Source of the DNA: a virus
Virus record (IMG/VR): IMGVR_UViG_3300021130_000224
Location: 1 to 64,000 of that record
DNA length: 64,000 nucleotides
Direction: 5' to 3' (one strand)
Part shown: positions 4,406-21,194 of the stretch, one piece after another
How the letters are laid out: each line of letters starts with the position of its first letter
Position numbering within the stretch: position 1 is the first letter of the stretch
Notes under the pieces: model-generated
Databases searched by the model: none
Told to the model about the DNA's origin: nothing
What the model saw: only the letters and a program-made list of their open reading frames with translations
Translations under genes and position numbers: made by a program

Positions 4406-4692
4406 CCTTGTTGTTTTAGGTATTGTTCAAAACTTACTTGAGGAAGGTCGTACTTCCTGATTTGTATTCCCAGTTTTTGGTATTCTCCGGGTCGAGTGAG
4501 CTTACCCCAGCCATGATTGATATCCATTCCCTTGGGCGCACAAAGAAACAATAACCGGTAATGCGGATCCGCAAATTCTGCATGCGGGGATACGTCTCTT
4601 ATTATAAAATCATGCCTATACTCAAGATTTATCAGCATGCGCCCATTAACCCAGTCGGTTAAGTGTTGCATCTTTTCTTCTATTGACATCAT
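4402..4692 (-). CDS. hypothetical protein
   Basis: ATGA-coupled ORF. Confidence 0.75.
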   Translation of the reverse strand: MMSIEEKMQHLTDWVNGRMLINLEYRHDFIIRDVSPHAEFADPHYRLLFLCAPKGMDINHGWGKLTRPGEYQKLGIQIRKYDLPQVSFEQYLKQQG

Positions 4693-4922
4693 TTCATACT
4701 ATTTTTTAGGTTCTCGATAAAATCTGGGTCAGGCTGAATGTCAATCATTCCTTGTTTCTCCCCTACGTTAAAATATAGGTTTGGCTTACTCACCACCTCG
4801 TCAATAGCCTCTTTTCGTGCTGCGTTGAGGGCTGCAATCGCTTCCGTAATAGGCACAAGACGAGTGTCTCCTAACGAATATACGATTGGGGTATTTTTGA
4901 AATAATCTTCTGCATCTCTCAT
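4689..4922 (-). CDS. hypothetical protein
   Basis: ATGA-coupled ORF. Confidence 0.75.
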   Translation of the reverse strand: MRDAEDYFKNTPIVYSLGDTRLVPITEAIAALNAARKEAIDEVVSKPNLYFNVGEKQGMIDIQPDPDFIENLKNSMK

Positions 4923-4973
4923 ATTTTTCGTTTTTAGTTTACTTTTAAGCCTTAAAGTACACTATGATTTTTC

Positions 4974-5366
4974 TTAGTTTACTTTCCGACCATTTTTAAC
5001 AATATCCACCGCTCGTTCTATTGCGGCTGCGAGGGCTGAGGGGTGGGTGTCGAAGCAAACTGCGGAATCTATTTTTTTAATGTGTTCAATATCTGTGATT
5101 ATAAAAGACCATCCAAATACACTTCCGACTTGTATACACACATGCAGCCCGTGTTTATCACGCAGATAGTCTTGTGCCTCGTACAGTGTCGGTGCGGAGA
5201 ACAATTGTATCATTCTGTTTGTCAAATTGGGGTGATTGTAGTCTACCTCCTCCCCTTTATCAAAATACATTTCAACCGTTGAGTTGGTAAAATAATTACC
5301 GCTCACGGGGACATCATACCCCACCTCTTTCAGCTTAATCGCTAACTGTTTTGTTACGTGTATCAT
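4974..5366 (-). CDS. hypothetical protein of a type common in Bacteroidota phages
   Basis: VTKQLAIKLKEVGY...SAPTLYEAQDYLRDKHGLHV pattern. Confidence 0.8.
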   Translation of the reverse strand: MIHVTKQLAIKLKEVGYDVPVSGNYFTNSTVEMYFDKGEEVDYNHPNLTNRMIQLFSAPTLYEAQDYLRDKHGLHVCIQVGSVFGWSFIITDIEHIKKIDSAVCFDTHPSALAAAIERAVDIVKNGRKVN

Positions 5367-7332: not shown

Positions 7333-7373
7333 GTTTTATGTTTTTGAATTGTGAAAAAATCTAAATAAAAATA

Positions 7374-7443
7374 CCTGGAGGCAGTAAAGTGAATCACTCT
7401 CTACTGCTGCTCCAGGTGGCGAATACAACCGACACAGGCTGTA
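7374..7443 (-). terminator. two-hairpin element ending the RNA-gene cluster (terminator or small structured RNA)
   Basis: TACAGCC-TGTGTC-GGTTGTA, linker TTCGCC, then long stem ACCTGGAG..GCAGTA....TACTGC-CTCCAGGT followed by ATTTTTATTT. Confidence 0.55.
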
Positions 7444-7455
7444 ATAATTTGTAAG

Positions 7456-7526
7456 TAGTTCTATCTTGATTTGAACAAGATCTAACTCTGTCAAAGAGAG
7501 TTGTGCTACCGTTACACTATGGAACT
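7456..7526 (-). tRNA. trnQ: tRNA-Gln(UUG), no encoded CCA
   Basis: AGTTCCA acceptor (one C-A mismatch), D-arm, anticodon arm ACTCT-CTTTGAC-AGAGT, T-arm TCTTG-TTCAAAT-CAAGA. Confidence 0.85.
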
Positions 7527-7551
7527 ATTTACCTGTCTCTCCAGGTTGTCA
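7527..7551 (-). repeat. tRNA 5'-leader motif, copy 1
   Basis: TGACAACCTGGAGAGACAGGTAAAT abutting tRNA-Gln position +1. Confidence 0.8.
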
Positions 7552-7595
7552 CGATCCCCTTATTTCATACTGCCTCGTAGACCGTCAACGAGCTG

Positions 7596-7669
7596 TACCC
7601 CGGATTGGACTTGAACCAATGACTCTCAGTTTAGAAAACTGATGCTACTATCCACTGAGCTACCGAAGC
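7596..7669 (-). tRNA. trnR: tRNA-Arg(UCU), no encoded CCA
   Basis: GCTTCGG/CCGGGGT acceptor, anticodon arm TCAGT-TTTCTAA-ACTGA, T-arm ATTGG-TTCAAGT-CCAAT. Confidence 0.9.
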
Positions 7670-7695
7670 ATTTACCTGTCTATTCCAAGCTGTCA
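7670..7695 (-). repeat. tRNA 5'-leader motif, copy 2
   Basis: TGACAGCTTGGAATAGACAGGTAAAT abutting tRNA-Arg position +1. Confidence 0.8.
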
Positions 7696-7721
7696 TAACT
7701 GATTGATAATCAATTAGTTAG

Positions 7722-8106
7722 TGGAGGTATTCGGCACTGCCCCGAAGTCTTTCCTGTGTTCCTGAAGTAGTTACGACCATGACTGAAGATTATCGTCTAC
7801 TGTCTTTAGACTATCTACTTTTTTAAGCTAAGTACATCTTCGTTGCTTATGGTATATAGACACCAACTTTACGGAGCCTAATTTAAAGTAAGGCATCTTT
7901 GTCTTTCTAACCTCAGACAGGTTTGTAATGTGATTAGGCAGCAATAGCTACTTCACCAAAGATTTCTGCAAGCAGAGAATCAACATTACCATCGAAAGAA
8001 ACTGTAGTTTCTGCGTTTATTGTTACCATATTTGCTTTGGACTCACTGGCATTGTCTGTTTCGCCACTTTTACTAACTACATGAAATCAATAACTGTTTT
8101 ACCCCC
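7722..8106 (-). ncRNA. ssrA: tmRNA, tag peptide AETTVSFDGNVDSLLAEIFGEVAIAA* (8014-7934)
   Basis: 5' GGGGGTA pairs with 3' TACCTCC-A including G3.U70; T-arm TTCGG-GGCAGTG-CCGAA; resume context ATAAAC-GCA; tag ends AIAA-TAA. Confidence 0.93.
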
Positions 8107-8123
8107 ATATTTTAAAGAACTAA

Positions 8124-8153
8124 GGAATCTGGTTAGCTTCCTAACCAGACTCC
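8124..8153 (-). terminator. 13-bp hairpin between the RS/WS ORF and tmRNA (terminator, attenuator or processing stem)
   Basis: GGAGTCTGGTTAG-GAAG-CTAACCAGATTCC followed by TTAGTTCTTT. Confidence 0.6.
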
Positions 8154-8179
8154 AAAGGTAATATTATTTGGTTAATTAG

Positions 8180-8359
8180 TTAACCTGACTCTGACCATGA
8201 CCATGACCTTGACCTTGACCTTGACCTTGACCATGACCATGCCCCTGACTCTGACCATGCCCCTGACCATGACCATGCGCTTGACCATGACCATGCCCCT
8301 GACCTTGACCTTGACCTTGACCTTGACCTATTTAGTTTTTTTAAATGAGATGTTATCAT
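8180..8359 (-). CDS. 59-aa RS/WS dipeptide-repeat protein (not in the ORF track)
   Basis: [59 protein letters not shown]; ATG 2 nt after the upstream stop; hexamer repeat (A/T/G)GG-TCA. Confidence 0.8.
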
Positions 8360-8361
8360 AA

Positions 8362-8646
8362 TTACAAAGTTGTCTTAAATGATTTACCAAATGATTCTAT
8401 TGCAGATAACTGTACATACCACTCATCAGATAATTTTTGAGCATCTTTAAATTTACTATCTGAAAAAGTTCCTGTTTCAAATACCTGATAAACTTTTTCA
8501 AGTTTTATACAAGTTGTATTTACTCCTACTAATTTACCATAGTAAAAGTAATTAAAACAAAAAATCAGTACTTCTTCACCTATAAGTGAGACAAACCCTT
8601 CATTAGGAACTTCTACTAATTTTGCAGTAACTGGTTGTTGTAACAT
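8362..8646 (-). CDS. small beta-barrel protein, predicted Sm/LSm/Hfq-like fold
   Basis: SLIGEEVLIF..NYFYYGKLVGVN..CIKLE resembles Sm1; WYVQLSAIESF resembles Sm2. Confidence 0.65.
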   Translation of the reverse strand: MLQQPVTAKLVEVPNEGFVSLIGEEVLIFCFNYFYYGKLVGVNTTCIKLEKVYQVFETGTFSDSKFKDAQKLSDEWYVQLSAIESFGKSFKTTL

Positions 8647-8682: not shown

Positions 8683-8946
8683 TTATTTAGCTAACTTCTC
8701 AGCATGTTCATACTGTAACCAGGTCTTTCTCCTACTATCAGGATACTTCCACTGTTGGTATTCAGTTTCATTGTAACAGTAGCCAGCAGCACCAAATTCA
8801 GGATTGTGCACTATACATATCAGGTTAGGTATAAACTCATCACCTGATACCCGGGTGGCACCATCTGCAATGAGTGATCTGATTTTTTCTTCTGCTGTAA
8901 GACCTATAGATAATCCTTTACTATCTTCGTTAATGTACTTTCCCAT
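8683..8946 (-). CDS. hypothetical protein
   Basis: 87-aa ORF. Confidence 0.8.
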   Translation of the reverse strand: MGKYINEDSKGLSIGLTAEEKIRSLIADGATRVSGDEFIPNLICIVHNPEFGAAGYCYNETEYQQWKYPDSRRKTWLQYEHAEKLAK

Positions 8947-8972: not shown

Positions 8973-9001
8973 AGAAAGCCGATAACTTGTACCGGCTTTC
9001 T
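8973..9001 (-). terminator. intrinsic terminator
   Basis: AGAAAGCCG...CGGCTTTCT then ATTTTT on minus strand. Confidence 0.7.
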
Positions 9002-9010
9002 GTTAAATTA

Positions 9011-9394
9011 TTACTCTGCTGTTGTAAGTTCTTGCCAATTGGGAAAATAGCAATTTCTGTAGGATTTCAAACGAGCCAAACCTTTCTCATAACCTTCAAT
9101 CTTTGTATCATGTGCAGCTAGGCTTGCCCAGTTCACATTTGATGTCTGCAGGGAATTTTCACGGCTCCTGATTGCATTTTGATGATCTCTGGTTGTAGCA
9201 GAGATATCTGCCATCAGGTTACGCAGGTTATCCTCAACCTCGTACTGCAGTTCCCTCTCTTCTCGATCCTTGAGTGATTCTTTCCTGATCTCCAGGTAAG
9301 TAGGCACTGCTACCTTTTTGTTGTTTGCTGCTGCTGATGATGCATTCTGTGATGCTGCTGACTGTGCTCCCTGAGCTGATGTTCTGTTTCTCAT
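9011..9394 (-). CDS. hypothetical coiled-coil protein
   Basis: 127-aa ORF; overlaps the 3' tail of the upstream ORF by about 160 nt. Confidence 0.75.
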   Translation of the reverse strand: MRNRTSAQGAQSAASQNASSAAANNKKVAVPTYLEIRKESLKDREERELQYEVEDNLRNLMADISATTRDHQNAIRSRENSLQTSNVNWASLAAHDTKIEGYEKGLARLKSYRNCYFPNWQELTTAE

Positions 9395-10382
9395 TTGTTT
9401 GAGTTTTTGATTGTTGATTAATTGGTGAAAAATTGTTTGATTGATTGTAAGTTGGGTAATTCTTTTTAGGACCTAAGTATACATGGATAGTTCCTGATAT
9501 ATAGGCATAGCCGTTTTCATCTACAGATTCTACTTCTCGGTCACCATAAAAATCTACTAAAGTATCATAAGATTCTTTTTTGGGACCAGTATAAAAAGTA
9601 GTAAATGAATTAAGCCATTTTTCAGGTAGTACATCTCCTACTTTCCACTGATCTTCTACAGGTGTTGTTTGTTGTTTACCTTGAGCAAGTGATATCTCTT
9701 CGGGAGTAGCTGGTCGTATGCAATCAAAAATAAAAAATAATTCTTGTTGATTACAATTTGCTTGTAGTTTGGCCCCATAACCAAGAACAGTACATACTTT
9801 TACTACATCACCTTCAATAATAGACTCATACTTAGCGGGATTACTAACTATATAAACATAATCACCTTCTTTGAAGACTACCTTTTCTGGTTCTTTTTTA
9901 AAACTTGCAAGAGTCTTCCATTCTTCAAATGTAAAAATAGGATATTCTGTTTCAGGTTCTTCTTTTTCAGAATCATGATACTCATTACCATCAAAGAAAT
10001 AGTATTTATCTGATCCACCTATACGGCAATCATCAAAATGTCTATTTATAGCATATGCAAACTCTCTTGTTTTTCTATCATTTTCTGAATCAAAACCGGG
10101 ATTAATAACCCAATGCTTCTCAGGTAATTCTACAAATTCATATGTAGCATTAAGATGAATACGCCATATCTCACCGTATTCTTCTTCTACATTAAAACCT
10201 GAATCAGAATCAAGTAAACCGGAACAAGCTTTTTTGGATGTTACTGTAACTATTATTGGTTCTTTGTGTGAGCCATAACCAAGTATACCAGAGCAACCAT
10301 CAATACCATTTGAACCTTTACCTGAATCAATCAGTTTGATCTTTGTTCCTTCAGGTAAATAACTACCTTTATTGTGCAACAT
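9234..10382 (-). CDS. multi-domain hypothetical protein (SH3/KOW-like modules)
   Basis: 382 aa; FKEGDYVYI..IRPATPEEI and WKVGDVL modules. Confidence 0.75.
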   Translation of the reverse strand: MLHNKGSYLPEGTKIKLIDSGKGSNGIDGCSGILGYGSHKEPIIVTVTSKKACSGLLDSDSGFNVEEEYGEIWRIHLNATYEFVELPEKHWVINPGFDSENDRKTREFAYAINRHFDDCRIGGSDKYYFFDGNEYHDSEKEEPETEYPIFTFEEWKTLASFKKEPEKVVFKEGDYVYIVSNPAKYESIIEGDVVKVCTVLGYGAKLQANCNQQELFFIFDCIRPATPEEISLAQGKQQTTPVEDQWKVGDVLPEKWLNSFTTFYTGPKKESYDTLVDFYGDREVESVDENGYAYISGTIHVYLGPKKNYPTYNQSNNFSPINQQSKTQTNEKQNISSGSTVSSITECIISSSKQQKGSSAYLPGDQERITQGSRREGTAVRG

Positions 10383-17730: not shown

Positions 17731-18042
17731 ATGGCAACGGTTAAGAAACAGATATACATTAATACTGAACTTGAGTGGGCTGAACAAAAACTTCAGGAAT
17801 GGAAGCAGTATGTTGATGAAAACCCTTTTCAACACATGAAGGATCGTATTGAGTTCAAGCCTACTGCTAAAGGAGGATTGATACCAATGGTGATTGCATC
17901 AATTGAATCACAGATAAAGTGTGTTCGTGATACGATGAAAGAATATCTTGTACTTTTGGAACAAGTTGATAAAATGCGACAGGCTGAAGAACATAAGAAG
18001 AAAGATGTAAAAGGCGGTGCTGATCGACCATCCAGAATGTAA
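17731..18042 (+). CDS. conserved helical protein, possible terminase small subunit
   Basis: directly upstream of and coupled (TAATG) to terL. Confidence 0.5.
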   Translation: MATVKKQIYINTELEWAEQKLQEWKQYVDENPFQHMKDRIEFKPTAKGGLIPMVIASIESQIKCVRDTMKEYLVLLEQVDKMRQAEEHKKKDVKGGADRPSRM

Positions 18043-21000
18043 TGATAGTTGAAAAGAAAATAAAAGAGATTAAATTCTCGGACTTCTTTAAAAACAAGAA
18101 GAGCATTCCTCCAAGGGGGTCAGATGCTTATGACAAACTTGTAAAGGAAGAAGAGGCAAGATGTTTAGGAGGTGTCATGGTCGATGGAGTATTTTTCTCC
18201 GGCTGGCTTTACTGGCACCTTAATCATTGGTGGATACGTGATGACATTGAGGACGAGTATGAAAATATTGTAAGACGTAAATTATTACCTTCTCTCCGGG
18301 ACAATGAGTGGATAGTTGCTCAATACCTTGAGGAATGTAGAGTAGAAAAGAAAGGTTACCTGCATATAGGTGTACGCCAGTTTGGTAAGAGTGAGATTAT
18401 GGCTTCTTACCAGGGTTATCATGCAACACTGTTTCAGAATACACAGAATGTAATAGTAGGTGGTAATGACTCTGACTTATCACTGTTAAAAGATAAAATT
18501 GACTTTGGTCTAAAAAATCTTTGGGAAGGATTACGTATCCCAATGCTTGATAAAGACTGGAGAAAACCCATGGTTCGTCTGGGACTTAAAGCAAAAGACA
18601 ACGATGATGAAGTATGGTCATATCTTATCATCAGGAACGTAGCGGATGGTAAGAATACAGAAGGTCCTGCCGGTGTTACAGCTAAAGCTTATGCAACCGA
18701 TGAGATTGGTAAGTTTCCATTTGCACAATCTTTTGAAGCTGCAAAGCCGGCCTTTAAATCTAAATTCGGTTGGCGTTGTGTACCACTATTGTTCGGATGT
18801 GTATGTGCAGGAACAAAAGTATGGACAAATAATGGGAATTTTATAAACATTGAAAATCTTGTACCTGAAAATGGAATTATAGGGTATAACGGAGAAGAAA
18901 GTTCAAAAGAAATTATTACTTATTGGCAACCTCCTTTTGAAAAGCCTTGCTATAAAATAGCAACTAACACCGGAAGATACTTAGAATGTAGCGAAGATCA
19001 CCCTATTTTATATAGAGCACGAGATGAAAAAGAAGGGCATAGATCTAAAAGGGTTCGTAAAGTTTATTTTAAAGAAGCAAAAGATATTCAAGTAGGAAAT
19101 CAAATAGCTGTAATAGAGAACGTAGATATTTTTTCTGAAAAAGAAATGTGGGAACCTAGGGTAGTAGGATGGTTGATAGGAGATGGTTCTTATGGGTTTG
19201 ATAAAACACCAGTACTTTCAAATTGTGATTTAGAAATAAACTCATATATAGAAAACAATTTAAACACTAAAACAGAAAGTACATATCTTACAAAAGATGG
19301 TAGGGTATATAAAGAAACACGTATAAAAGATATTTGTAAAGAACTGAGGAAAATAGGTATATACGGGCAAACAAAACTTAAAAAAACTTTGCCTATAGAA
19401 GTACATTCTTATTCTAAATATGCTATAACAGAATTATTAGGCGGTTTATTTGATACAGATGGTACAGTTGGTGGATACAATAAAGGAATACCTATTATAG
19501 CATTAGCAGCTTCTTCTGAATTTCTCCTAAAAGAAGTTCAGTTTTTACTTCAAAAATTAGGTATACATTGTACCATAAAAAGAATTAAAGCAAATATTAA
19601 AGAAGGAAGAAAAGACAGAAATGATCATTACAGATTATCTATTTGTGATAAAAAAAGTATAAAGATGTTTTATGAACAAATTTCTTTTTACGTTAAATAC
19701 AAACAAGAAAATCTGTCTAAGTGTGTTGAAAGATTAAATTCTAAAAAAGAGCAAATACCAAAAGAATTAAAAGGCATTAGATTAGAAAGGGTAGTTAGTG
19801 TAGAGTATATAGGAATTAAACCTGTGTATAATCTTACTGCAGGCACTACTAATACATATATTGCTAATGGTATCGTTACTCATAATACCGGAGGCTCTTT
19901 TGAAAAGGGAGCTGATGCTGAACGATTCTTTTACCACCCGGATGCCAACAACTTCCTAGCAGTAACTGATCCTATAACAGCCGAAAGAACTTGTGTGTTT
20001 ATGTCGGGTCTGTACCGCCTTGATTGCAAGTATGAAACTACGCTTGGTGATTATCTTCGGAAGGAAGGAAAGATAACACATGATACAAAAGAGCTGAACA
20101 AAATACCATTCCATGCTTCTGACAAAATAAAAGCCCTTGAGACAATCAAGGCAGAAAGAGCAAATAAAGCACTTGACCCTGATCAGACAGAGTACCTGAA
20201 ACTTATCATGTACTATCCTCTAACTCCAAAAGAGTGTTTCCTTTCTTCATCTGAAAATTACTTCAATGGAGATATTGCCCGAAACCAGAAGGAAAGACTC
20301 GAGGTCATGTTTCCTGGGCTTAAGGTTGGTATGTATGTTGATCTCTATGAAGAGGAGGGTATTATAAAACACAAACCTTCAACCAGATTACCTGTCTCTT
20401 CATTCCCTAAAGGACCAAAAGAAGATACCAACTGCCCGATAGTAATACTAGAGCACCCCGGCCCCATGCCTCCTTATGGTTTATTTGTTGCTGGGATTGA
20501 CCCTTACCGTTTTGAGAAAGCTCCAAACTCGGATTCATTGGGGGCAATTTATATATTTAAAAGAGCATATGATGCTTTAAGTGATAGCTTTCAAGACATG
20601 CCGGTTGCTTGGTACGTGGCTAGGCCAGACAGCAAAGACACTTGGAACAACAATGTAAGACTACTGATCAAGTACTACAATGCAATTGCACTTTGCGAAA
20701 ATGATGAGATGTCATTTATTGATTATATGATTGCAAAAGGGGATGGTCACATGCTCATGGATACTCCTGATTGGATCAAAGAGTACAGTCCTACAAGTAG
20801 TGCTAACCTCAGACAGAAAGGCGTAAGCTCTTCTCCAAGAAACATTGAGCTATTTAATACTAACCTAAAGCAGTACATGGAAGAGTACTTTGCATCTGCT
20901 CCGGTTCCCGGCTCTGAGGAGACAAGAAAGGTACTTGGTGTTGCCAAGATTTACGATTCTGTATTACTTGATGAGATTATTAAATGGAACAAAGATGGTA

Positions 21001-21194
21001 ACTTTGACCGCATCAGGGCATTGTCAATTGCAATTACCTGTGCAAGAAAAATGGATTTACAACGTATTCAACCACAAGTTGAAGATAATGAACCACAAGT
21101 AGTAAAACCTAAACGGAGGAGAAGTGGTCCATTTAAAGAAATGAACAGTACTATATTTGGCCCGAGAGGGAGTATAAACAGACTTTTTAAATAA
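18042..21194 (+). CDS. terL: terminase large subunit with intein (mature about 687 aa)
   Basis: Walker A RQFGKS, Walker B YATDEIG, G|TGG motif split by the intein, nuclease GIDPY, NFDRI; lies upstream of portal. Confidence 0.95.
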   Translation: MIVEKKIKEIKFSDFFKNKKSIPPRGSDAYDKLVKEEEARCLGGVMVDGVFFSGWLYWHLNHWWIRDDIEDEYENIVRRKLLPSLRDNEWIVAQYLEECRVEKKGYLHIGVRQFGKSEIMASYQGYHATLFQNTQNVIVGGNDSDLSLLKDKIDFGLKNLWEGLRIPMLDKDWRKPMVRLGLKAKDNDDEVWSYLIIRNVADGKNTEGPAGVTAKAYATDEIGKFPFAQSFEAAKPAFKSKFGWRCVPLLFGCVCAGTKVWTNNGNFINIENLVPENGIIGYNGEESSKEIITYWQPPFEKPCYKIATNTGRYLECSEDHPILYRARDEKEGHRSKRVRKVYFKEAKDIQVGNQIAVIENVDIFSEKEMWEPRVVGWLIGDGSYGFDKTPVLSNCDLEINSYIENNLNTKTESTYLTKDGRVYKETRIKDICKELRKIGIYGQTKLKKTLPIEVHSYSKYAITELLGGLFDTDGTVGGYNKGIPIIALAASSEFLLKEVQFLLQKLGIHCTIKRIKANIKEGRKDRNDHYRLSICDKKSIKMFYEQISFYVKYKQENLSKCVERLNSKKEQIPKELKGIRLERVVSVEYIGIKPVYNLTAGTTNTYIANGIVTHNTGGSFEKGADAERFFYHPDANNFLAVTDPITAERTCVFMSGLYRLDCKYETTLGDYLRKEGKITHDTKELNKIPFHASDKIKALETIKAERANKALDPDQTEYLKLIMYYPLTPKECFLSSSENYFNGDIARNQKERLEVMFPGLKVGMYVDLYEEEGIIKHKPSTRLPVSSFPKGPKEDTNCPIVILEHPGPMPPYGLFVAGIDPYRFEKAPNSDSLGAIYIFKRAYDALSDSFQDMPVAWYVARPDSKDTWNNNVRLLIKYYNAIALCENDEMSFIDYMIAKGDGHMLMDTPDWIKEYSPTSSANLRQKGVSSSPRNIELFNTNLKQYMEEYFASAPVPGSEETRKVLGVAKIYDSVLLDEIIKWNKDGNFDRIRALSIAITCARKMDLQRIQPQVEDNEPQVVKPKRRRSGPFKEMNSTIFGPRGSINRLFK
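18798..19886 (+). mobile_element. intein (363 aa) with LAGLIDADG homing endonuclease
   Basis: starts CVCAGT, block B CSEDHP, VGWLIGDGS and LGGLFDTDG, ends VYNLT..TYIANGIVTHN, +1 Thr. Confidence 0.95.

Follow-up and report, generated by a model that had tools for sequence, protein, structure and literature searches.

What binds together, if anything does, the genes that lie head to tail between positions 8646 and 7362 of the uncultured phage record IMGVR_UViG_3300021130_000224? Read on the minus strand, this short stretch carries a gene for a 94-aa Sm-like protein, a second gene made largely of a serine repeat, a hairpin, a transfer-messenger RNA (tmRNA), two tRNA genes and a terminal double hairpin. 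The original prediction, drawn from the DNA letters, took them for a single translation-rescue unit in which the Sm-like protein and the repeat peptide bind or protect RNA, or control the expression of the RNA genes. All the parts listed there turned out to be real, on the minus strand and at or near the positions given, the tmRNA having needed confirmation beyond the standard tools. Their integration into one module is the part that found only partial support: we favor, with a probability of about 65%, a reading in which two independent units stand head to tail and their adjacency is specific to this lineage.

The window, that is, the whole stretch of DNA analysed here, corresponds to the initial 64 kb of an IMG/VR virus record of 108,421 bp, with an estimated completeness of 93%. 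Records designated by L or G numbers are the relatives used for comparison, L002, L003 and L105 being sister phages. The first of the two units (unit A, 8646 to 8180) would be a self-contained pair, formed by an Sm/LSm-fold protein and a translationally coupled, basic and disordered micro-protein, with the following features:

8362 to 8646, minus strand: gene for a 94-aa protein of predicted Sm/LSm fold, from an unannotated phage family (open reading frame list, homologues, AlphaFold2, Foldseek, VIA).
8180 to 8359 (stop included), minus strand: coupled gene for a 59-aa peptide with a basic leader and then alternating Ser-x, where x is mostly Arg or Trp (frame comparison across loci).
8192 to 8329, no strand assigned: hexanucleotide array (GGTCAN)23, the body of the peptide gene (TRF, period 6, 23 copies).

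The 94-aa protein has 71 close homologues, and its relatives amount to about 520 clusters at 50% identity (E<=1e-3). In the AlphaFold2 model (pLDDT 92.2) a short N-terminal helix is followed by five strongly bent antiparallel strands (residues 25-30, 33-42, 46-57, 68-79 and 83-88) that close into a small barrel. When this model was submitted to Foldseek, the three matches at E<=0.001, as well as nearly all later ones, were LSm or Sm chains, the best of them at E about 1e-3. The 15 best rows of a VIA comparison were likewise Sm/LSm chains, with Z 10.8 and a root-mean-square deviation of 2.3 over 67 of 69 residues aligned on an S. pombe Lsm protein; Hfq chains align at Z about 7. The claim of an Sm-like protein was thus upheld by a check that returned LSm/Sm and not another fold, and on its predicted structure the protein has the Sm/LSm fold.

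The primary sequence tells little of this. No Pfam family was matched by the protein at E<=0.1, nor any PHROG, and none of the 46 aligned family members matches the LSM or Hfq Pfam models at E<=1. A profile search of PDB sequences retrieved no Sm chain, the Mx1 match found there being due to chance. Similarity to Phage_Hfq clusters by a language model, at only 0.82, amounts to nothing beyond a lead. A motif of the form G-x-L-x-G-V-N, assigned by inspection as Sm1-like, is conserved across the 46 sequences, with G37, L39 and G41 invariant and N43 nearly so. The family appears to be one of uncultured phages: among 50,697 phage records, tblastn with the protein retrieved just one, uncultured, and no cultured representative.

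The second gene of the pair begins with an ATG 2 nt after the stop of the Sm-like gene. Since the array in the window leaves the three sense frames open, and two antisense frames as well, the window alone cannot tell which frame is read. The comparison of 10 loci whose Sm-like proteins share 57-99% identity gives the answer: a single frame is always open with an ATG at or beside the Sm stop, often as an ATGA overlap, and this frame always reads Ser-x, the serine being encoded by TCA, AGT or AGC according to the lineage. Of 81 loci, 73 have such a gene after the Sm-like one; among the other eight, three are truncated by contig ends, and L163 and L164 have three Ser-x genes 0.7 kb further on. 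Across 58 distinct peptides x is Gly 584 times, Arg 397 times and Trp 391 times, so that one of these three occupies 84% of the x positions, while serine is kept through five codons (TCT, TCG, TCA, AGT and AGC) and the arginine of the repeat through AGG, CGG and AGA. The basic Lys/Arg leader ahead of the repeat is short, with a median of 11 residues, and the median net charge is +10. The coupled Arg-Ser/Trp-Ser frame that had been proposed is therefore, on these comparative grounds, a real and conserved partner gene.

The choice of codons in the repeat is peculiar. NGG makes up 81% of the x codons, and in the 59-aa ORF all 9 arginine codons are AGG and 3 of the 4 glycine codons are GGG; the phage itself seldom uses either (16% of its Arg and 6% of its Gly codons, respectively). 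This bias can be ascribed to homogenisation of the array together with the single codon available for tryptophan. Furthermore, NGG is the sole codon family in which any change of the first base yields Gly, Arg or Trp, and the hexamer array would evolve by slippage, with only the first base of NGG free to vary, toggling between these three residues. DNA contigs of run X4, which carry near-identical freshwater DNA, end inside the array at 8244 and 8256; in view of these assembly breaks the length of the array in this record may be uncertain.

Other ways of reading the repeat were discarded. A programmed frameshift fusing the Sm-like gene to the repeat would need a shift to frame -1 here and in the loci with an ATGA overlap, and to frame +1 in the L004 group, and there is no locus without its own ATG. 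Adenine mutagenesis of the diversity-generating retroelement type is not what the array records, since the A of TCA is invariant and it is the first base of the next codon that varies. The Gly-Gln/His frame lacks a start, is interrupted by five stops ahead of the array, and has an equivalent in L010 that carries TGA stops. A prediction of the complex between the Sm-like protein and the 59-aa peptide, run without controls, scored 0.00 and has no weight either way.

No other family of neighbouring genes is common to different lineages around the pair, which marks it as a self-contained cassette. From this single query 263 confirmed IMG/VR stretches carrying it were collected. No description of the pair was found in the literature, and it has neither a name nor a Pfam family. 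In the mechanism that we propose, the Sm-like protein would oligomerise as Sm proteins do, the Arg/Trp-rich peptide would act as a separately encoded low-complexity "tail" providing nucleic-acid contacts, and the two together would handle RNA in early infection.

Two further arrangements were observed around the pair. In L163 (440 to 2472), and in the same way in L164, the Sm-like gene is followed by three unrelated small open reading frames (ORFs) and then by three tandem Ser-x genes that share the leader MFQT(N/K)RIK; after them come one hydrophobic-looking small ORF and a permuted two-piece tmRNA (RF04321, 109 bits) with the tag ANDNVAYEDYALAA and the T loop GGCAGUA. In L008 and L111 an ORF downstream of the pair (about 4650 to 5170) shows, by eye, the peptide-deformylase-like motifs GMSGANVAIP, NCGSI and QHEIDH, preceded by a gene-free stretch of roughly 190 nt (4450 to 4640) with complementary ends, GGGGUGGA...UCCACCCU.

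The second unit (unit B, about 8160 to 7362) would be a movable RNA cassette that consists of a 5' flank with its hairpin, the tmRNA, tRNA-Arg, tRNA-Gln and a terminator:

8124 to 8153, minus strand: 13-bp hairpin with an interrupted T-run (terminator-like scan; fold -23.5 kcal/mol, z -4.7 against shuffles).
7722 to 8106, minus strand: one-piece divergent tmRNA of 385 nt (stem and tag geometry, geometric scan, nhmmer profile, sister phage L002).
7934 to 8014, minus strand: tag frame of the tmRNA, with resume codon GCA, 26 residues AETTVSFDGNVDSLLAEIFGEVAIAA and a stop.
7595 to 7669, minus strand: tRNA-Arg(UCU) (ARAGORN; Rfam RF00005, 54.9 bits, cut-off 29).
7455 to 7526, minus strand: tRNA-Gln(UUG) (ARAGORN; Rfam RF00005, 56.1 bits, cut-off 29).
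7362 to 7443, minus strand: double hairpin, first of 7 bp and then of 8+9 bp, ending in a U-rich tail; it closes the cassette in the manner of an intrinsic terminator (fold -33.4 kcal/mol, z -5.3).

Neither ARAGORN with its default settings nor Rfam at the gathering score calls the tmRNA; the RF00023 model (cut-off 47 bits) has no match in the window at that score or at E<=1, and a short-range Rfam scan gives only weak matches to alpha_tmRNA (E 0.015) and tmRNA_permuted (E 0.13) at the 3' end of the element. With lowered thresholds ARAGORN proposes spurious "permuted" models that place the tRNA domain in the hexamer array. The failure of the standard tools can be traced to the T loop, which reads GGCAGUG in place of the canonical UUCRANY and resembles the alpha-proteobacterial GGCgGUA and the GGCAGUA of L163.

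The geometry is nevertheless that of a tmRNA. An acceptor stem of 7 bp, GGGGGUA/UACCUCC, pairs 8106..8100 with 7729..7723, includes a G3:U70 pair and is followed by the discriminator A at 7722 and by CUA (CTA in the DNA) instead of CCA. The sister phages keep G3:U70 while four other acceptor pairs change on both sides (GGGCCCG/CGGGUCC). The T arm (7746..7730), with a 5-bp stem and a 7-nt loop, adjoins the 3' strand of the acceptor as it should. The tag is long and acidic and ends in AIAA before UAA, and those of the relatives range from 25 to 38 residues; ahead of the resume codon, the context ACAAUAAAC-GCA is common to the window and to the Rfam-validated tmRNA of L002. A helix resembling P2, GUAGUUA/UAACUAC, can be paired by eye. 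Acceptor stem and T arm are both closed in the minimum-free-energy fold, whose z is only -1.05 and in which pseudoknots cannot be represented.

Comparison with other phages adds independent evidence. The L002 element at the equivalent position matches RF00023 over its full length (61.8 bits, E 7e-24). An nhmmer profile built only from three tmRNAs of other phages that pass the Rfam cut-off (L121, G018 and G006) matches 8104..7719 with E 1.4e-16 over profile positions 13-364, the sole significant match in the 64 kb, and a strict geometric scan of about 1.5 Mb of phage DNA recovered only the window element and the two copies in sister phages. The window element is closest to the tmRNA of G018, which has the canonical T loop UUCGACU. 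An alignment of the window tmRNA with those of the sister phages by MAFFT is unreliable in the body of the molecule, and a pattern scan of IMG/VR with its 5' motifs returned 92 stretches, of which the two sister phages have tmRNA geometry and the others are chance matches. By its geometry and its relatives, then, the element is a genuine, divergent member of the known tmRNA class, as had been claimed.

Contigs from two riverine metatranscriptomes cover 7731..8097 only, to the exclusion of the flanks, at 90-100% identity and depths of 17-43; this hints at a stable RNA, contigs as such being unable to prove transcription. None of them reaches across the hairpin or onto the tRNAs, an absence that carries no information in either direction, and short RNA contigs on the hexamer array proved to be low-complexity matches from other phages. 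Charged by the host alanyl-tRNA synthetase, the tmRNA would work with host SmpB to free stalled ribosomes and tag their products; as the phage genome has no SmpB gene, it must rely on that of the host.

The two tRNA genes, both recovered by ARAGORN and Rfam as predicted, are the only ones in the 108-kb genome. The codons that they read, AGA and CAA, account for 50% of the Arg and 63% of the Gln codons of the phage, which fits a role in codon supply. Each tRNA is directly preceded by the same element of roughly 20 nt, CYTGGA-RWAGA-CAGGTAAAT (7670..7689 and 7527..7546), which forms a small CCTGG/CAGG hairpin followed by TAAAT and recurs ahead of the tRNAs in L002 and L003; its possible roles are a signal for processing or one akin to a promoter.

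Both hairpin structures that had been described were recovered by folding, with the values listed above. The 13-bp hairpin lies 17 nt before the tmRNA and travels with it. L002 has an equivalent 13-bp hairpin of different sequence before its tmRNA (z -5.4), and L121, as read from the sequence, has a hairpin in the same place with no Sm-like gene upstream. A motif TAnnTTTG (8160..8153) abuts the hairpin in the window, as it does in L121. Should this motif act as a Bacteroidota-type promoter element, transcription would begin within the 5' arm of the hairpin, and the hairpin would then stop transcripts coming from upstream yet not block the tmRNA's own. At the other end, the 8+9-bp stem within 7417..7362 is directly followed by UAUUUUUAUUU, as in an intrinsic terminator. 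The double hairpin is 95% conserved in L105 and is also present in L106 and L121.

Two side observations concern this end of the cassette. A motif (T)GTATTCGCCAC, with ACAGCC before it, lies just ahead of the terminator in all lineages seen (window 7389..7443, L121 1214..1281, L185 556..580), also in G018, where no tRNA follows the tmRNA. In L003, right after the cassette terminator (5164 onward), an ORF starts with MEKKLPIIGIIGHVDHGKSTL, the G1 motif of translational GTPases; its place is taken in the window by an unrelated 83-aa ORF.

That unit B moves on its own can be read from the relatives. The window and L105 share 92.7% identity between 8967 and 8204, and 85-97% between 7725 and 7361. 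Between these flanks, what remains of the array, together with the hairpin and the complete tmRNA, cannot be aligned (window 7725..8204 against L105 5449..5890), which identifies the hairpin and the tmRNA as an exchangeable cassette. The left boundary of the swap falls inside the hexamer array, where the BLAST identity ends at 8204, and the right one at the 3' end of the tmRNA; the window has a tmRNA of the G018 type and its sister phages one of the L121 type. Moreover, L121 itself carries the same series (a 5' flank of roughly 60 nt, hairpin, tmRNA, tRNA-Arg, tRNA-Gln and double-hairpin terminator) behind an unrelated gene and 3.6 kb upstream of its Sm-like gene, and 12.7 kb separate the tmRNA from the Sm-like gene in G018. 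Compared by blastn with the phage collection, the locus gave only tRNA-sized matches.

The distribution of the pair points the same way. The original prediction linked the homologues of the 94-aa protein both to a downstream repeat gene and to RNA genes: the first part held, in the proportion of loci given above, and the second largely did not, adjacent tRNA or tmRNA genes being found only seldom. Among the 81 related loci the pair almost always stands without RNA genes beside it, 7 of 21 large records that carry it have no tRNA, and 22 of 36 have no tmRNA over the Rfam cut-off. Thus, while the components of the proposed rescue unit are real, a single integrated module is not supported, given a pair that mostly stands without RNA genes beside it and a cassette that lies elsewhere in L121 and G018. 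Comparative evidence of this kind argues against an obligatory coupling of the two.

Several observations weigh against the reading as two independent units and against the mechanism outlined for unit A. A tmRNA over the Rfam cut-off is present in 14 of the 36 pair-bearing records and in none of 22 unrelated IMG/VR records (Fisher p 4e-4), a contrast unmatched for genome size, habitat and ancestry; when counted by lineage, about 9 of 28 have one (p 3e-3). In tRNA-bearing genomes the Sm-like gene lies closer to tRNAs than expected by chance (Fisher p 0.015-0.056, excluding this lineage). A second lineage, that of L163 and L164, whose Sm-like protein is 56% identical, has the Sm-like gene, the Ser-x genes, the small ORF and the two-piece tmRNA within 2 kb. 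Furthermore, the gap between hairpin and tmRNA is only 12-17 nt, which leaves no room for a promoter; transcripts of the tmRNA must then start at or before the hairpin, and read-through from unit A is possible. As regards unit A itself, the Arg-Gly of the Sm2 motif, which completes the uridine pocket, is absent (the position reads Q-L-S-A-I-E-S) and the 94-aa protein contains no arginine at all. Since the arginine of the pocket is missing, RNA binding by the Sm-like protein itself is not implied, and canonical uridine binding is, to judge from the residues, doubtful. What the pair would do is argued by analogy, with no direct support.

Could the whole stretch then be one operon-like translation-rescue module after all, in which the Sm-like protein and the peptide would bind, protect, process or regulate the tmRNA and the tRNAs, these RNAs being made by read-through of the hairpin? 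The common strand, the tight packing and the missing promoter room before the tmRNA would all be expected from it, as would the tmRNA found about 0.25 kb after the Ser-x genes in the second lineage, the unequal occurrence of tmRNAs in records with and without the pair and the weak proximity of the Sm-like gene to tRNAs. Eukaryotic Lsm2-8 and archaeal Sm proteins, besides, associate with pre-tRNAs and RNase P RNA. Yet pair and tmRNA are adjacent in just 2 of roughly 30 lineages, where the RNA cassette lies elsewhere (L121, G018) its own 5' flank and hairpin stay with it, most pair-bearing phages have no tmRNA and a third of them no tRNA, and the hairpin is terminator-like, with T7 after it in L002. 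In addition, the tmRNA enrichment suffers from its lack of matching, all the more as, among records at least 90% complete, only those of 108 kb or larger carry a tmRNA. We consider this explanation unlikely. A looser functional tie between the pair and the tmRNA has little more than an outside chance; given that the figures are unmatched for size, habitat and ancestry, it is treated as a lead only. The same low expectation applies to a related proposal, that the pair is a phage device for stable-RNA biology which assembles on, chaperones or shields the tmRNA and the tRNAs, for instance against host RNases or anticodon nucleases, or which helps to load a tmRNA with an odd T loop onto host ribosomes.

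Two further explanations concern the repeat itself, and both appear very improbable. The Ser-x ORF might be a translated leader or sensor, in which the rare codons AGG, GGG and TGG slow the ribosomes and thereby modulate, through the hairpin, the expression of the tmRNA and tRNA-Arg(UCU), in a form of attenuation. Its skewed Arg and Gly codons, a distance from its stop to the hairpin of 26 nt here and about 7 nt in L002, and a downstream tRNA that reads AGA and AGG would suit such a device, but the same type of ORF occurs in at least 70 loci that have neither a hairpin nor an RNA gene after it, L121 shows that the hairpin is part of the tmRNA cassette, 26 nt are too far for a terminating ribosome to mask it, and homogenisation of the array with a single Trp codon already accounts for the NGG bias. 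Alternatively, the repeat could be non-coding simple-sequence DNA, a recombination hot spot or a protein-binding array, and the 59-aa ORF an accident of a hexamer free of stops. The multiplicity of open frames in the window, codons atypical for the phage, and a tmRNA swap boundary and assembly breaks that both fall within the array could be invoked in its favor. It is difficult to reconcile with the facts that only the Ser-x frame has a start beside the Sm stop and is open in all lineages, the other frames being stopped in L008, L010 and L011, that Ser is kept through both TCN and AGY and Arg through three codons, and that a conserved basic leader precedes the repeat. We retain the reading as two independent units, a protein pair and a movable RNA cassette, as the more probable one.

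Each of the two units has partial counterparts among known systems. Arg-Gly low-complexity tails of SmD1, SmD3, SmB and LSm4 supply nucleic-acid contacts in cis. Like these eukaryotic Sm/LSm proteins, and in a comparison of a general kind, the phage pair would combine an Sm-fold core with a strongly basic, Arg/Gly-rich dipeptide repeat; unlike in them, the phage repeat is encoded by a coupled gene of its own, has Ser at every other position and contains much Trp, and the phage protein lacks membership at the sequence level as well as the Sm2 Arg-Gly, its ring formation and RNA binding being suggested by analogy. The runs of alternating Arg-Ser recall the RS domains of SR splicing proteins; the peptide, unlike these, is only partly Arg-Ser, with Trp-Ser and Gly-Ser as common, the organism that carries it is a bacteriophage, and neither an RRM domain nor a kinase gene was found in the conserved neighbourhood of the pair. 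Among phage proteins, GoF, MotB.1 and Frd.2 of T4 form an LSm-like family (PMC12152347), for which the available portion of that source reports no Ser-x repeat partner gene. With these proteins, Hfq and Phage_Hfq (PF23874), the 94-aa protein would have in common a small phage-encoded Sm-like barrel, as modelled, and a suspected role on RNA; unlike Hfq and Phage_Hfq, its family has no aligned member that matches any Hfq or LSm Pfam model.

As for unit B, phage tmRNAs are already known as the two-piece ssrA of the OM43 phage Melnitz and of pelagimyophages (PMC9004378) and from huge phages (PMC7162821), and the published frequency is 2.3% of phage genomes, reaching 17 of 47 in one group of aquatic myophages (PMC9004378). 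The window tmRNA resembles them in lying beside tRNA genes, in an aquatic phage without an SmpB of its own, a setting for which ribosome rescue or selective tagging has been proposed. Unlike the ssrA of Melnitz and the pelagimyophages, it is in one piece, with a T loop GGCAGUG, CUA for CCA and an acidic tag of 26 residues.

The genome around the locus is that of a tailed phage, with terminase, portal and major head genes on the plus strand from 18 kb onward, and near-identical DNA is present in many freshwater metagenomes. The locus belongs to a block of small minus-strand genes, among them one for endonuclease VII, and its own genes are devoid of Shine-Dalgarno sequences, a trait that, along with the TAnnTTTG motif, points to a host among the Bacteroidota. 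One more feature precedes the pair:

8683 to 8946, minus strand: gene for an 87-aa protein without assigned function, which opens the apparent transcription unit, has no wider family match and is kept only in close relatives.

A terminator-like hairpin (9001..8973) lies upstream of this gene. Further along the same strand, the ORFs 9011..9394 (127 aa) and 9234..10382 (382 aa) share 161 nt that each reads in a different frame, possibly owing to a mis-called start, a frameshift or a true overlapping pair. Finally, 18042..21194 encodes an ORF of 1050 aa, unusually long for a terminase, whose C-terminal 410 residues match the terminase large subunit and whose residues 292-477 weakly match a DNA-primase PHROG.

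The case of this tmRNA bears on how such molecules are counted. Surveys based on ARAGORN, such as that behind the 2.3% figure, would not include it; phage tmRNAs with altered T loops escape both ARAGORN and Rfam, and for that reason the published counts are likely too low. The exchange of tmRNAs as cassettes between near-identical phages hints, in turn, at selection on the tag or on compatibility with the host.

The Sm-like/Ser-x pair, for its part, is among the commonest unannotated gene pairs in uncultured phages, and the excess of tmRNAs in the genomes that carry it constitutes a concrete and testable lead. Were the pair indeed a device for stable-RNA biology, neither its frequency in phages with a tmRNA nor its adjacency to one in two unrelated lineages would be accidental. 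In bacterial viruses, an Sm core and a basic low-complexity tail split between two genes would be an unexpected parallel to the proteins of the eukaryotic small nuclear ribonucleoproteins.

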